From positions 75,456,001 through 75,520,000 of the forward strand of contig NC_086108.1 of the NCBI RefSeq assembly GCF_963921235.1: a stretch of 64,000 nt of DNA, in the 5' to 3' direction. A program made the position numbers and the translations under genes. The stretch is from Mobula hypostoma (Eukaryota). The notes below the pieces were generated by a model. The model was not told the origin of the DNA. It saw only the letters and a list, made by a program, of their open reading frames with translations, and did no database searches. Every line of letters starts with the position of its first letter. Positions within the stretch are counted from its first letter, which is position 1. Of the stretch, positions 3,984-52,466 are shown one piece after another.

Positions 3984-5130
3984 GAATTGACTGAAAAAAA
4001 CCCTCATTCAACTAGATAAGCGGTAGGGAATCCAATTAAGAACACCATCTTCAGTAGTTCCATGAACTGAAATTTCTTATCGGTGTGCAGTTGTTCCAGA
4101 TGATCAAGATGTACAATCAGATCATCATCTTGCAATTCTATTTTAAGAGTGGCCAGTGAAGGAAATTGAATAAACTTGCAAAGTCCAAAAGTGTTGCTGA
4201 AAAGTGTGAGTTTTCCAAGGAAAGAGGTAATAGTGTCTTCCCATGGTATGAGATCAATGACAGAAAGCCTTCCAAGAGGGAGAATCCTTGCAATGTGACA
4301 AGCCCCAATGATGTACCCGGTAGGGCTCTGCAAACCTGTGCTAACCAAATGGCAGGTTGTTCAAAGACAAGTTCAGACTCTCTTTGCTACGGTCGAAAGT
4401 TTCTACCTGCTTCAAAAGGGCAACAAATCATACCAGTGCCCAAGAAGAACAGGATGAGCTGCCTTAACAACAATTGTCCAATAGCACTCACATCTGGAGT
4501 GACGAAGTTCTTTGAGAGGTTGGTTATAGCTAGAATCATTTCCTGCCTAAGCAAGGACCTGGATCCACTGCAATTTGTCTATTGCCACAATAGGTCTACA
4601 GCAGATGCAATGTCTTTGATTCTTCATGCAGCCTCAGATCACCTGGACAATATTAATACTTATATCAGGCTGCTATTTATTGACTACAGCTCAGCATTTA
4701 ACACAATCATTTCCACAGTTCTGATCAAAAAAAACTCCAAAACCTAGGCCTCTGCACCTCCCTCTTTGTAAACTTTCTCACCAGAAGACCACAGTCTGTG
4801 CGGATCAGAAATAACATCTCCACTCATTGATAATCAACACTGACATACGTCAAGGATGTGTGATTAGCCCACTGCTCTACCCTCTCTACACCTATGACTG
4901 TGATGCTAGGCACAGCTCACATTGTCATCTATAAATTTGCTGATGACACAACTATTGTTGGCAGAATTTCAGATGGTGAGCAGAAGACCAGCAAGACCAA
5001 AAAACCGTGGACTTCAGAAAGGGTAAGATGAGGGAACACAAACCAGTCCTCATAGAGGGATCAGAAGTGGAAAGGATGAACAATTTCAAGTCCCTGGGTG
5101 TCAACATCTCTGAGGATCTATCCTGGGTCC

Positions 5131-5381
5131 AGAGTTAAAAATACACGGACTAAGATGTTAACTGTCCTGTGCTATCACTAGTGGGATCATCAGTTGATCT
5201 GCCACCTGTCTTCAGGAGTTTCGGCCCGCTTATGATCAAGACTCCCTCGAGATGGTGGGCCAGCAGTGTTAAAGCACCACCTCCCACTGGTGAGCTTAAA
5301 AACTTGGCATCTGCCTCTATCAGTCACTTCCATCCACAGACAGTCTGCTCTTCAGGTGTCTCTGCAACTACTGAAGAGTCT
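5131..5381 (-). mobile_element. 3' end of a HERO-like RLE-clade retrotransposon inserted into the Rex1 copy
   Basis: Interrupts contiguous Rex1 sequence (tcctgggtcc|...|atgcagttacaaagaagg). Degenerate AE.AE.S..LWM ORF terminus, and a 3' UTR organised like that of the RLE-encoding fragment at 43110-43597. Confidence 0.6.
5180..5246 (-). ncRNA. Candidate permuted (pseudoknotted) hammerhead ribozyme
   Basis: RNA GGAGU-C-UUGAUC-AUA-AGCGGG-CC-GAA-ACUCC-(15 nt)-GAUCAA-CUGAUGA-U-CCCACU. Perfect stems I and III, intact CUGAUGA, GAAA and GUC, imperfect stem II. Confidence 0.55.
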
Positions 5382-29249: not shown

Positions 29250-32200
29250 TTAATGATATGAAGAAGACGATGCCAGCAAACAACACCTCCACAGACAGCG
29301 TCCTCATGATGGTCCACAAAACTGCTTCCTTCACTTCCTTTATGTCTTCTTTTTGTTTCAGATGTGGTACTTTTGGGGTCTTTGATCTACAGTTTGGTGG
29401 TGTGTTTTCACAACATCAGCCTGGTTTGATTGAGTGATCTAGCGCTTTGCTGTCTCCAAGAGGGTTGCGAGAGGCGAGCAGCCTCTTTGAGTCCAAGAAG
29501 CTTGGAGAAGGGGCTCGCGCCCGTGATCGACTCCATTTCTCACCGATCTCACTGATTAATGTGCTGAGGAAGATTGAAAACATCGAGGTGAGTGTGGAAG
29601 GTGAGCGTGGAAGGTGAGCAGATTTAAATTCAAGCTTACCACTCAATTATTTGGGGACCATTCATTGCTCCTACCATGGTTGCCATGGCTAGAACACTGC
29701 CCAACTTCACGCAGTATGTGAGCTGTACAACCAGAGGGGAGAGGACTCTGGATTTGATGTACGCTAACGTTAAGGATGCATACAGCTCCTCTCCCCTCCC
29801 CCCACTGGGAAGGTCAGATCATAACCTGGTGCATCTAAAACCCTGCTACGTGCCCCTGGTGAAGAGTAAACCAGCAACCTCGAGGACAGTGAGAAAATGG
29901 TCAGAGGAGGCTTATGAGGCGCTCCAGGGTTGTTTTGAGGTGACAGATTGGCAGGCACTCTGTGAGCCACATGGAGAGGATATTGATGGGCTCACAGAGT
30001 GCATCACTGATTACATTAACATCTGTGTGGACTGCAATGTTCCAACAAGAACTGTCCTTTGTTATTCAAATAACAAGCCATGGGTGACAAAGGACATTAA
30101 GGACATCCTGAACGCTAAAAAGAGGGCGTTTAGAGATGGAAATAGAGAGGAGCTGAGGGCAATACAGAGGGACCTGAAAGACAGGATCAGGGAGGCTAAA
30201 GACAGGTACAGGAGGAAGCTTGAGTGGAAACTCCAGCAGAACAACAAGAGGGAGGTCTGGAGGGGGATGAGGACCATCACTGGGTTCCAGCAAACTAGCA
30301 ACAGAGGAGCTGAAGGCAGTGTGGACAGGGCCAATTTATTTAACCTGTTCTTTAACAGATTTGACATTGTAGCCCCTGCCCATCCCCCACATTAGCCATC
30401 TGTTGTCAGCCCCCAACCAACACATATTCCACTCTCCCTTCCTACCCCTCCTCACAGTCCCCCATCCTGCTCTCATGACTATACCCCTTCCCCACACGAA
30501 ACCACCACGGTGGGCTTCACAGCTGAACAGGTGAGAAGACAGCTGAAACGTCTCAACCCAAGCAAGGCTGCAGGACCGGATGGTGTCAGTACCAGGGTGC
30601 TCAAAGCCTGTGCCCCTCAGCTATGTGGAGTACTTCGCCATGTATTCAACATGAGCCTGAGTCTCCGGAGGGTTCCTGTACTGTGGAAGACGTCCTGCCT
30701 CGTCCCTGTGCCAAAGACGCCGCACCCCAGCGGCCTCAATGACTACAGACCAGTGGCATTGACCTCCCACATCATGAAGACCCTGGAGAGGCTTGTTCTG
30801 GAGCTGCTCTGGCCTATGGTTAGGCCACACTTAGATCCCCTCCAGTTCGCCTACCAGCTCCGACTAGGAGTTGAGGATGCCATCGTCTACCTGCTGAACT
30901 GTGTCTACACCCACCTGGACAAGCCAGCGAGCACTGTGAGGGTCATGTTTTTTGACTTCTCCAGTGCGTTCAACACCATCTGCCCTGCTCTGCTGGGGGA
31001 GAAGCTGACAGCGATGCAGGTGGATGCTTCCCTGGTGTCATGGATTCTTGATTACCTGACTGGCAGACCACAGTACGTGTGCTTGCAACATTGTGTGTCC
31101 GACAGAGTGATCAGCAGCACTGAGGCTCCACAGGGGACTGTCTTGTCTCCCTTTCTCTTCACCATTTACACCTCGGACTTCAACTACTGCACAGAGTCTA
31201 GTCACCTTCAGAAGTTTTCGGAGCAAGGGAGATGAGGCTGAGTGCAGGGCTATGGTAGGAAACTTTGTCACATGGTGTGAGCAGAATTATCTGCAGCTTA
31301 GTGTGAAAAAGACTAAGGAGCTGGTGGTAGACCTGAGGAGAGCTAAGGTACCGGTGACCCCTGTTTCCATCCAGGGGCTCAGTGTGGACATGGTGGACAT
31401 GGTACAAATACCTAGGGATATGAATTGACAATAAACTGGACTGGTCAAAGAACCCTGAGACTGTCTACAAGAAGGGACAGAGCCGTCTCTATTTCCTGAG
31501 GAGACTGAAGTCCTTTAACATCTGCCGGACGATGCTGAGGATGTTCTACGGGTCTGTGGTGGCCAGTGCGATCATGTTTGCTGTTGTATGCTGGGGCAGC
31601 AGGCTGAGGGTAGCAGACACCAACAGAATCAACAAACTCATTCGTAAGGCCAGTGATGTTGTGGGGATGGAACTGGACTCTCTGACGGTGGTATCTGAAA
31701 AGAGGATGCTGTCCAAGTTGCATGCCATCTTGGTCAATGTCTCCCATCCACTACATAATGTACTGGGTGGGCACAGGAGTACATTCAGCCAGAGACTCAT
31801 TCCACCGAGATGCAGCACAGAGCGTCATAGGAAGTCATTCCTGCCTGTGGCCGTCAAACTTTACAACTCCTCCCTTGGAGGGTCAGACACCCTGAGCCAA
31901 TAGGCTGGTCCTGGACTTATTTCATAATTTACTGGCATAATTTACATATTACTATTTAACTATTTATGGTTCTATTACTATTTATTATTTATGGTACAAC
32001 TGTAATGAAAACCAATTTCCCCTGGGATCAATAAAGTATGACTATGACTATGACTAAGTTTTCAGCGCCACCTGCCAGCCTCTCACCCGTTGCTGCCGGA
32101 AAAGGAGTCTTTCCCTTCCCCTCTTGCTTGCTGATCCTGAAGGACGGTCGCTGCATTCCAATAATCTTTCTCTCCCTCGATGCTGTTGGAGGATGGTGCC

Positions 32201-41325: not shown

Positions 41326-43109
41326 AAATATAATCTGATAGGTGAGGATAAATAGAACTTGAGGTGCAGGATGGATATTAGAATAAGTGCAAACAATTAA
41401 GAATATATTTATGATTACACTTTAAAATGACCTAATGTTCTGACAACACAGCATAAGATCCTATGTTTTCCCACAGATAGTTTGTTTGTGAAACACATGT
41501 AAAAGATCAGTTATTCCCACCACAGATTCACATGCAATATATGAGTTCCTGTTAAATTCACATGAAACAATACAGAGCTGAGGTCATCGTGCTTCAAGAT
41601 GGTTATCCACAGCATTTTGCTGTAGGATAGATGATAGGAAACAAAATATTTTTCTCTTTGTGCTCAGTGAAGGTATTAAAATGTCTTAGGAAATGCATCT
41701 GCATGTCCTAGTGCCTCAATTTTACTCTTAAGAATCAATAGGAATATTACCACATTAAAGCTTCTTATTGGTATCATTCATAGGCCAAGATTCATTGTTA
41801 TGATTAAAAGCACATTAGTGTCAGTGGTTTCTCCTAGTTTTCAGGCACACATCCAGCAGTTTGGCTTGAGGGTGAACAACCACATCCTTAAATCCCCTAC
41901 ACCTTCATTTTCCATGCTCAAGGAGTCTTTCCATCAGACTTTGGATGATTGGATGGCCATTGACTTGGGCACGCTTCCTCCCTCCTGCAGCTTTGATTGA
42001 TTCAGAAACAACACCTCCATATTCTATGATACACTGAAAATAATGGTAGTTTGTGTTGTCTAGGTTATTCTGGCTATTGTCTCACTTTCTAACTACTTCC
42101 ACTCATCAAAGACCAGATAAACTTGTTTACAGCTCATCTCCATGGTTACCCTGGCTTTGCCCTATCAGAGATGTCGCTTCCCCTACCATCCTCGCAGCTT
42201 TACAAGCTTCTTCTATCACCCGTTCGTTTCTGATGAAGGGTCTCCAACTTGAAACATCTACTCTGTTTACTTTCCCATGAATGCAGCCGACCTCTTGAGT
42301 GTTTCTAACATTTTCTGTTTCTGTAGTGTATTAATGGGTATCCACAGTTTATTTTTAATTGTTAGAAATTTATCCGAGCTTTGAAGTTATAATTGGACAA
42401 GCAATCTTGAATTCCTGTGATATATCAAAATGTCTTATAAAGTTCTTCTTCTGATGAAGAAAGGTCTGAGCCCACAACATCGACTGTTCGTTCATTTCCG
42501 TGGATGCTGCCTGAACTCTTGAGTTCCTCCAGCACTTTTGTGGATGTTGCCCTGGATTTCCAGCATCTGAAGAATTTCATAAAGTTATTATAAAGTTATT
42601 TTGTTACTTCAACATTTACTCATCAAGAATATGTTTTTAAAGTCCTATGCTTCTATTCCTCAGATGAAAAATGTACTCTACAAGCTTATAATCCTAAAGT
42701 ATAGATAATGGATTTTCATGTCATCAGAAATATTAGATGCCTCGCACCGTGAATTGTTAGGGACTTCTACTGAACCTTTTGTTATTTAAACAACAGTATA
42801 CTTATCAAGTACTGCCAGAGGCACTTGCAGTTTCATAGATGTTAACTGACTTATGATCTGCAATTATGTACTTCACTTTCTCATTCATGCAATCTTCTGA
42901 ATTCAATACCAGAACAGTCATAAACTCATTCATATAAAATGGATTGCTGGGGGTTGTATTAAATAGGAAAATGAATATAAAGAGACCTATAAAAACACTA
43001 TAATTATAATTATGAGAAGTTTTATTTGCTTCTTTTTCATTGAGTAATCAGTTGCTTCGGAGGCATTTGCATCCATTTAAGGGGCGACTTGATAGATGAT
43101 GAGATGTAG

Positions 43110-43597
43110 AGGAAAATGTTTCCTGCTTGGCATTGCTGCCTGCTGCACCCGCAACAGTAGCCTTAGGTCATTGGCAGACCCTTCAACCAGGGGCCACTAT
43201 TAACTGATGTTTCACTCCTTAACCCTTGTACATTTCCTGGTTGTGGAGCAGTGGCAGGGGTGTCTCCCTGCCACACCCTGCAGCTTTCAATGGTGTTAGT
43301 CAGCCCCCAATTTCTGTCCTTTCTCCCTAGCCCTTTTCTGCCTCTTCAGCCAACTCTCTAGTGGCCCTCCTGAGACACTGTCATATCCCAGAGTAACCCT
43401 GCCATCGATGTGCCGGCAAAGCCCCAGCATGCTACCTCCACAGGGTAGATGATGGTCCTCCAGCCAGCTGCCAGGTCTGAGTACCTGCTTGTGGGCAGCC
43501 TCCACTCCTTACTCCCTTGGGATGGCTAACTCAATGAGGACTGTGTTGGTGGCCATGGACCAAGGTACTATGTCTGGGCGGAGAGATGCAGTGGTGT
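43110..43597 (-). mobile_element. HERO-like non-LTR retrotransposon 3' fragment with restriction-like endonuclease
   Basis: Frameshifted minus translation TTASLRPDIVPWS..VLIELAIPRE*GVEAAHK / RYSDLAAGWRTIIYPVEVACWGFAGTS..LL / RELAEEAEKG matches the PD-(D/E) RLE domain pattern of HERO elements. Confidence 0.85.
43174..43234 (-). ncRNA. Degenerate copy of the permuted hammerhead motif
   Basis: RNA AUGU-A-CAAGGG-(9 nt)-GAA-ACAU-(14 nt)-CCCUGG-UUGAAGG. Same strand order as 5180-5246 with different but pairing stems. The core has 2 substitutions. Confidence 0.45.
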
Positions 43598-52297: not shown

Positions 52298-52466
52298 AGA
52301 CCAGAAAATATGAAGATGCTGGAAATCCATGCAACACACACAAAATGCTGGAGGAACTCAGCAGGGTCCTGATGAAGGGTTTCGGCCCGAAATGTCGACT
52401 GTTTACTCTTTTCAATAGATGCTGCCTGGCCTGCTGAGTTCCTCCAGTATTTTGTGTGTGTTGCCA
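52298..52466. repeat. Penelope-derived unit with 35-bp inverted arms flanking a hammerhead
   Basis: Arms 52331-52365 and 52430-52464 (one mismatch) enclose GTC-CTGATGA-agggtttcggccc-GAAAT-GTC-GAC. Confidence 0.85.

Follow-up and report, generated by a model that had tools for sequence, protein, structure and literature searches.

A hammerhead-like motif behind a decayed retrotransposon gene

Does the hammerhead-like sequence at 43.2 kb in the window (the whole 64,000-nucleotide stretch of DNA analyzed) represent a conserved RNA structure of a retrotransposon clade or a chance resemblance, and what might such a structure do for the element that carries it? The first-pass annotation described a permuted hammerhead at this locus, and positions 43233-43180 of the minus strand read AUGU-A-CAAGGG, GAA-ACAU, a 14-nt linker, CCCUGG and UUGAAGG exactly as it stated. 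The motif lies just 3' of a broken restriction-like endonuclease (RLE) frame, as had also been noticed, and the motif at 5.2 kb likewise matches its earlier description. The 43.2 kb copy belongs to a group that we term family A. The 5.2 kb copy belongs to a second, young family, B, which differs from family A and has the same endonuclease domain at the end of its ORF. The features of both copies are listed below in hammerhead numbering.

43098..43597 (ends approximate), minus strand: 3' end of a family A element, a 5'-truncated and decayed HERO-like RLE-type non-LTR retrotransposon
43296..43597, minus strand: C-terminal RLE remnant with a frameshift and a stop (tblastn against relatives, E 2e-9)
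43298-43296, minus strand: family A stop codon
43276..43285, minus strand: 5' strand of helix X (partner 43179-43170)
43250..43275, minus strand: hairpin Y, with no spacer to X or stem II
43245..43249, minus strand: 5' strand of stem II, first letter G10.1
43235..43244, minus strand: 5' strand of P0 (43244-43238) and the N-G-A of a kink-turn-like bend
43223..43234, minus strand: block S, comprising the 5' strand of stem III, U16.1 (43230), A17 (43229) and the 5' strand of stem I (43228-43223)
43229/43228, minus strand: predicted cut, within block S
43206..43218, minus strand: block G, comprising the 3' strand of stem II (43218-43214), GAAA (43213-43210) and the 3' strand of stem III (43209-43206)
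43193..43205, minus strand: 3-nt bulge and GA of the bend (UA in this copy), then the 3' strand of P0 (43199-43193)
43180..43192, minus strand: 3' strand of stem I (43192-43187) and core CUGANGA (here UUGAAGG; 43186-43180)
43170..43179, minus strand: 3' strand of helix X, decayed
5128..5380, minus strand: 3' end of a family B element
5293-5175, minus strand: ribozyme-like fold of the 5.2 kb copy, every core letter intact, predicted cut 5240/5239

The 43.2 kb copy keeps 6/10 pairs in X, 9/10 in Y, 5/5 in stem II, 4/7 in P0, 4/5 in stem III and 5/6 in stem I, and its core departs from CUGANGA by C3U and A9G. On account of these two core changes and the weak X and P0, the copy is most likely a dead remnant, in agreement with the earlier opinion. 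In the 5.2 kb copy the core is complete and the pairing is X 11/12, Y 7/8, II 5/5, P0 6/7, III 6/6 and I 6/6.

The hammerhead-like fold recognized at the outset stands, in a larger form than was described: helices X and Y, the kink-turn-like bend, and the partial tandem arrangement of copies discussed below had been missed. Stem II, judged unconvincing in the 43.2 kb copy, is intact when 43218-43214 is paired with the upstream strand 43249-43245. The additional helix suggested for the linker also exists, although not in the proposed GCCACUG/UAGUGGC register. GCCACUG consists of the 3' arm of hairpin Y followed by G10.1, and the linker pairs instead with 43244-43238.

Family consensus and distribution of the motif

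A genome search for family A returned 366 candidates, of which 40 were scored and 30, with 69–81% identity to the 43.2 kb copy, were taken. The majority letters in the 29 other copies are C3 (21), U4 (27), G5 (25), A6 (24), U7 (25), G8 (25) and A9 (24), restoring CUGAUGA at 21–27/29 per position, and a C at 43227 in 26/29 returns stem I to 6/6 pairs. The first-pass annotation had named a family consensus lacking CUGANGA or stem I complementarity as grounds for discarding its proposal. As the family majority restores both CUGAUGA and the 6-bp stem I, those grounds do not arise.

The family B search returned 1598 candidates, with 40 scored at 95–97% identity, and two further families, C and D, were found by protein search. 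The elements are about 3.6–3.8 kb in length and encode their own protein, a 1115-aa open frame in one family D copy. A fixed 3' end without poly(A) follows the predicted cut after 111 nt (B), 86 nt (D) or ~131 nt (A). Two family B copies are rearranged, L068 by an internal deletion and L072 by a 5' inversion.

Metagenome contigs were scanned with an alignment of the endonuclease, and 80 of 147 loci were kept, 62 of them with 250 nt or more downstream of the ORF. A strict descriptor in S-G-C order matches 40 of these 62 3' UTRs, compared with none in the antisense strands, none in the upstream ORFs and a mean of 0.05 over 20 shuffles. The UTRs that it misses include some decayed or deleted copies, a few without any core, and three with a variant core. 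Removal of near-duplicates from 119 matches left 31 representatives of distinct lineages, with a median RLE protein identity of 45% (30 proteins). The earlier claim of a conserved, covarying structure rather than chance is thus borne out, both by the excess over shuffles and by covariation across the 31 lineages.

No hammerhead match to the Rfam covariance models was found in the 64-kb window or in eight loci, as expected because the strand order differs. A scan of viral contigs gave 11 pattern matches and no relative. Three loci (L155, L161 and L190) have the core and a short G-to-C linker without the kink-turn geometry, and are perhaps a simpler form of the fold.

Secondary structure

Comparison of the sequences gives the 5' to 3' order Xa, hairpin Y, IIa, P0a, IIIa-UH-Ia, IIb-GAAA-IIIb, bend, P0b, Ib-CUGANGA, Xb. 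Selection of the sequences drew on stems I and III and not on stem II, X, Y or P0. The strand preceding GAAA pairs with a strand about 19–21 nt upstream of U16.1 to form stem II, which has at least 4 bp in 28/31 representatives (33% in controls with swapped partners), and the partner of G10.1 is C in 26/31 and U in 4/31. Helix X joins the strand after A9 to one far upstream, with at least 6 bp in 26/31 (16% swapped), and the gap that separates X from stem II is taken up by hairpin Y, without a spacer in most rows. Beyond a 3-nt bulge and opposed GA steps, stem III continues into P0, which in turn runs into stem I. P0 has at least 4 bp in fixed register in 21/31 (4% swapped). Kink-turns consist of a 3-nt bulge followed by tandem G-A/A-G pairs between two stems, and the sequence geometry of the kink-turn-like bend fits in only 22/31.

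Pair counts were made on 28 rows, comprising 27 of the 31 representatives and the window copy. The near-duplicate L149 and the three loci with other spacing (L155, L161 and L190) were excluded, and X and Y were not scored because MAFFT misaligns both. In these rows 91% of cells are paired and there are 135 double changes, a result reached by 0/500 shuffles, though relatedness inflates such counts. Slid controls drop to 30–45% paired. RNAalifold applied to the MAFFT alignment recovered stem I alone. Single-strand folding gives z of -3.3 to -4.7 for three intact copies and -1.7 and -1.5 for the two window copies. Taken together, the comparative data leave very little doubt that the fold is real.

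The set displays CUGANGA, GAAA and UH (the 43.2 kb copy excepted), stems I–III flanking the core with covariation, and a retained G10.1-C11.1 pair, all of which are expected of a hammerhead. However, a hammerhead would also have stem II directly after A9 (0–2 nt), and here X and Y intervene. From the alignment, X and Y with the hammerhead stems are predicted to form a four-way junction between A9 and G10.1. Under the stacking rules for four-way junctions, X could stack on Y while A9/G12 still stack on G10.1-C11.1, such that an active core could form. We know of no tested hammerhead with helices inserted at A9/G10.1. If the prediction holds, the hammerhead core tolerates a break thought forbidden, and the fold offers a testable case of a ribozyme core assembled over a four-way junction.

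Two other arrangements were discarded. A classical stem II, pairing the strand after the core with that before GAAA, occurs in 4/31 compared with 4.7% of swapped controls. An inhibitory hairpin over the core, an idea that came from families A and B, was dropped when helix X accounted for that strand.

Catalytic core

Circularity was avoided by a search that ignored the core letters and used helices and fixed gaps alone, with gap sizes from the model and one shuffle per UTR. It placed 38 of the 62 UTRs above the shuffle maximum. In the gaps of these 38, C3 occurs in 35, U4 in 35, G5 in 35, A6 in 36, G8 in 36 and A9 in 36, with N7 free, followed by G10.1 (33), G12 (33), A13 (35), A14 (37), A15.1 (35), U16.1 (34) and a non-G letter at 17 (37). 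When position 17 was unrestricted it was U in 15, C in 15, A in 14 and G in none of 44 sequences. With positions 3 and 8 left free, the pair was C-G in 41, U-G in 2 and U-A in 1 of 44, with no mispair. U3-A8 is an expected compensatory change in the hammerhead core, for which a single U-A is weak support. The core variants occur in the related lineages L180, L152 and L154, with U3-A8 at one locus and U3-G8 at two loci that belong to one lineage.

A free N7, a non-G at 17 and paired 3-8 are catalytic requirements of hammerheads. Judged across these lineages, the letters are conserved in the pattern of a hammerhead active site, and the fold probably self-cleaves. The two cut pieces would presumably stay paired via about 27 bp, which could hinder end exchange.

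Element class and clade

The protein layout is a single ORF with a reverse transcriptase (RT), a zinc knuckle and a C-terminal PD..(D/E) endonuclease, as in RLE-type non-LTR elements. The RT matches RVT_1 with an E-value of 5e-19, the best PDB matches are R2 proteins, and the RLE alignment agrees. These proteins have neither the GIY-YIG endonuclease nor the PLE-type RT of Penelope-like elements. The host flanks of the copies are unrelated to one another, indicating that insertion is not site-specific, and named homologues are found in lancelets, teleosts, lamprey and bivalves. The HERO clade is described, in the accessible text of PMC4640811 and PMC9004415, as RLE elements of fish, lancelet and sea urchin that for the most part insert without site specificity. 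The HERO name, assigned from domain layout, unrelated flanks and host range rather than from a tree with named HERO elements, fits the families described here.

Partial tandem copies

A copy of the element's own 3' end, variable in length and often including a second whole ribozyme fold, stands at the start of near-full-length insertions. Thirty family B copies chosen by the first 200 nt of the head are all directly preceded by their own 3' end (28 called by BLAST and two short ones by eye), and in 16 this upstream piece runs past the cut. For family D the corresponding numbers are 27/30 and 24, with two of the remaining three beginning at the junction and one truncated. The family D copy with the 1115-codon frame has a 435-nt direct repeat that holds the whole fold, and upstream pieces reach more than 1.3 kb. 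In family A, where copies were chosen by their tails, a tail-head junction appears in 1/30 (L008). The metagenome shows a tail running into a head at 9/52 loci, a pattern that collapsed assembly can also give.

The two repeats within an insertion differ by 0.043, compared with a mean of 0.056 between insertions (minimum 0.048 in 2000 permutations; 22/30 insertions scored). Several insertions, for example L254, L272 and L277, do not show this closeness of paired repeats. Of the 23 tandem insertions with both ends available, only about 2 are flanked by convincing target-site duplications. Upstream of 5'-truncated copies lies unrelated host DNA.

Copies cross the predicted cut without a trace of it. 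None of 30 family B copies chosen by sequence 3' of the cut begins there, and there is no 5'-end pile-up at the cut in either of two family B sets (0/30 each), with one family D end at -2 among 30. Indels within 3 nt of the cut occur in 0/100 copies. The idea of a short element of 111 nt that begins at the cut was rejected (0/30). The template therefore looks continuous over both the cut site and the tail-head junction, as a circle or a multimer would be.

The region just after the tail-head junction is conserved from lineage to lineage and has several imperfect ~21-nt repeats that start with CAGUGAC and have purine-rich loops (L034:1753-1880, the minus strand of L231 after the repeat, L152, L162, L171, L180, L184, L192 and L196). 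These could be an element for cap-independent translation or protein binding. At L034:1663-1753, contigs of other sequence (runs X1 and X3) attach to the family B tail, with the joint at 1663 and a steep increase in depth. This increase, past L034:1660, coincides with the loose ends of the other family, possibly a SINE-like tail-borrower without block S. In a predicted fish protein (P0093), residues 1-27 match the 3' UTR of L172 and L178; this start points to the same partial tandem arrangement in the genome of a named teleost.

Relationship to known ribozymes and retroelements

The closest known structures are the type-SGC hammerheads (HRIMA-1 and a variant; Eckert et al. 2023, PMC10085705), which, as described in the available text, share the S-G-C order and core letters, a short linker from stem I to stem II, and multiple pseudoknots. 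However, block C is uninterrupted in type-SGC, whereas here it is split, with the 5' strand of stem II upstream of S, and X and Y between A9 and G10.1. The type-SGC linker and 3' tail form a I-II interaction helix, while here the linker pairs upstream (P0) and the tail far upstream (X). The kink-turn-like bend and the extension of stem III by P0 are present here and absent from type-SGC as that text describes it. In strand order, the present fold corresponds to the S-G-C cycle of the non-circular hammerheads of Eckert et al., broken open at a fourth position, where the X/Y junction takes the place of the A9-G10.1 link. The same text treats blocks, block C included, as uninterruptible, and it searched with patterns containing obligatory CUGAUGA(U)G and CGAAA, to which most sequences of the present set do not conform. 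The architecture escapes published patterns as well as Rfam models. According to the accessible text of PMC10085705, type-SGC RNAs occur in no genome of a known organism, and the one such exception among RNAs of this kind is a bacterial type-GCS candidate. Our elements are animal genomic retrotransposons and would place non-circularly permuted hammerheads, so far described from metatranscriptome RNAs of unassigned origin, in animal genomes and in many copies there.

Penelope-like elements, as the consulted portion of PMC8557442 describes them, are alike in that a full-length copy follows a truncated copy of its own 3' end, with a hammerhead inside the repeat. They differ in that the protein here has an R2-like RT and an RLE rather than GIY-YIG, and the ribozyme is not a minimal type I. 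Retrozymes (available text of PMC7229834) have a similar proposed cycle, in which RNA is cleaved to monomers, ligated to circles and reverse-transcribed to tandem DNA. However, they are short and non-autonomous with classical hammerheads, whereas the elements here are autonomous. R2, L1Tc and RTE elements carry HDV-like ribozymes at their 5' ends, and promoter-independent release of RNA from a host co-transcript is a likely common purpose (PMC6765202, in part). The ribozyme class is different, though, as is its position behind the ORF, and copies do not begin at the cut. The available portions of PMC3088659 and PMC7650587 were also compared. In the open papers searched we found no link between HERO elements and hammerheads, no split block C and no such partial tandems; a prior description is possible.

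Proposed replication cycle and alternatives

We propose that the 3' UTR fold is conserved, has a new strand order, likely self-cleaves, and likely releases a unit-length RNA that would circularise and be reverse-transcribed, and assign this reading a probability slightly above one half. A host read-through transcript of a tandem insertion would be cut at both ribozymes, and the resulting 5'-OH and cyclic-phosphate ends would be sealed by the ribozyme itself or by an RtcB-type ligase. The element protein would then prime at a fixed internal site 86–131 nt past the cut. Because copying would continue once round the circle and beyond, the partial tandem would be regenerated. Retrozymes provide a precedent for such cutting, ligating and copying of a circle (PMC7229834, in part). 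The chances that the circle is the main template appear evenly balanced. An uncut linear multimer would leave the same DNA pattern. The most specific version, a widespread, autonomous R2-like LINE clade that replicates via closed circular RNA made by a kink-turn-bent hammerhead split at A9/G10.1 by a four-way junction, with rolling-circle target-primed reverse transcription, is put forward tentatively, at a little under even odds.

The nearest competitor, though unlikely, keeps an active but slow or reversible hammerhead and dispenses with the circle. A linear read-through or multimeric template would be primed internally, tandems would be inherited from parent tandems, and cleavage would restrict element RNA or keep RNA for translation apart from RNA for copying. 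Low type-SGC rates of 0.007–0.19 per min (PMC10085705, available text) are in keeping with this, as are the availability of tandem copies as parents and the fact that copies always cross the cut site. One pair of family B insertions (L270 and L271; G000 C50 and C40) shares 970 nt of 5' host flank while the 3' flanks differ right after the 3' end, and L271 looks like a copy of linear read-through RNA across the cut site, consistent with 5' transduction. However, such a shared upstream boundary is found in only one pair among 29 family B flanks and in none among 29 family D flanks, and upstream pieces of more than 1.3 kb would be expected to shrink in each generation without renewal. We consider it rather improbable that the fold does not cut at all and is recognized by the element protein to start reverse transcription, with the hammerhead letters kept for shape. 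The strand after CUGANGA is indeed held in X, a classical stem II is possible in just 4/31, no copy bears a trace of a cut, and the location is where R2 proteins bind their RNA (PMC6765202, in part). Against this, stem II forms with the upstream strand and the G10.1-C11.1 pair is kept, and the free N7, G-less 17 and paired 3-8 fit catalysis, across proteins that are ~45% identical.

Still less probable is a cut without rejoining, in which the RT jumps the nick between base-paired pieces and the template is a nicked, non-covalent circle. X, II, P0 and III would hold the pieces together, and R2 reverse transcriptase can reportedly cross RNA ends, a finding attributed to Bibillo and Eickbush in 2002, but neither the indels nor the 5'-end pile-up that such jumping might leave at the site is present. 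That the partial tandems arose independently of the RNA fold, by new copies inserting at the 3' ends of old ones, would follow the habit of many RLE elements of being target-specific (PMC4640811, available text). Yet self-targeting is unlikely because host DNA lies upstream of truncated copies, and the likeness of paired repeats exceeds chance; this explanation is largely refuted and its probability is negligible. We also rejected, as the main route, an upstream ribozyme that serves solely in R2-like 5' processing, since copies extend beyond the cut.

Although LINEs are described as having no terminal repeats, the elements here are LINEs with pseudo-LTRs and possibly a circular template. The link between hammerhead, pseudo-LTR and circle in Penelope elements becomes testable in an unrelated enzyme family. 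If the proposed cycle is correct, these elements have converged on the strategy of Penelope elements and viroids, and protein priming inside a circular RNA would be of interest for the engineering of R2-based gene insertion.

Other features of the window

Positions 30519-31202 of the window weakly resemble the RT region of these proteins and probably belong to another LINE class. At 52351-52444 there is an inverted repeat with 14-bp arms and a sub-threshold Rfam match.
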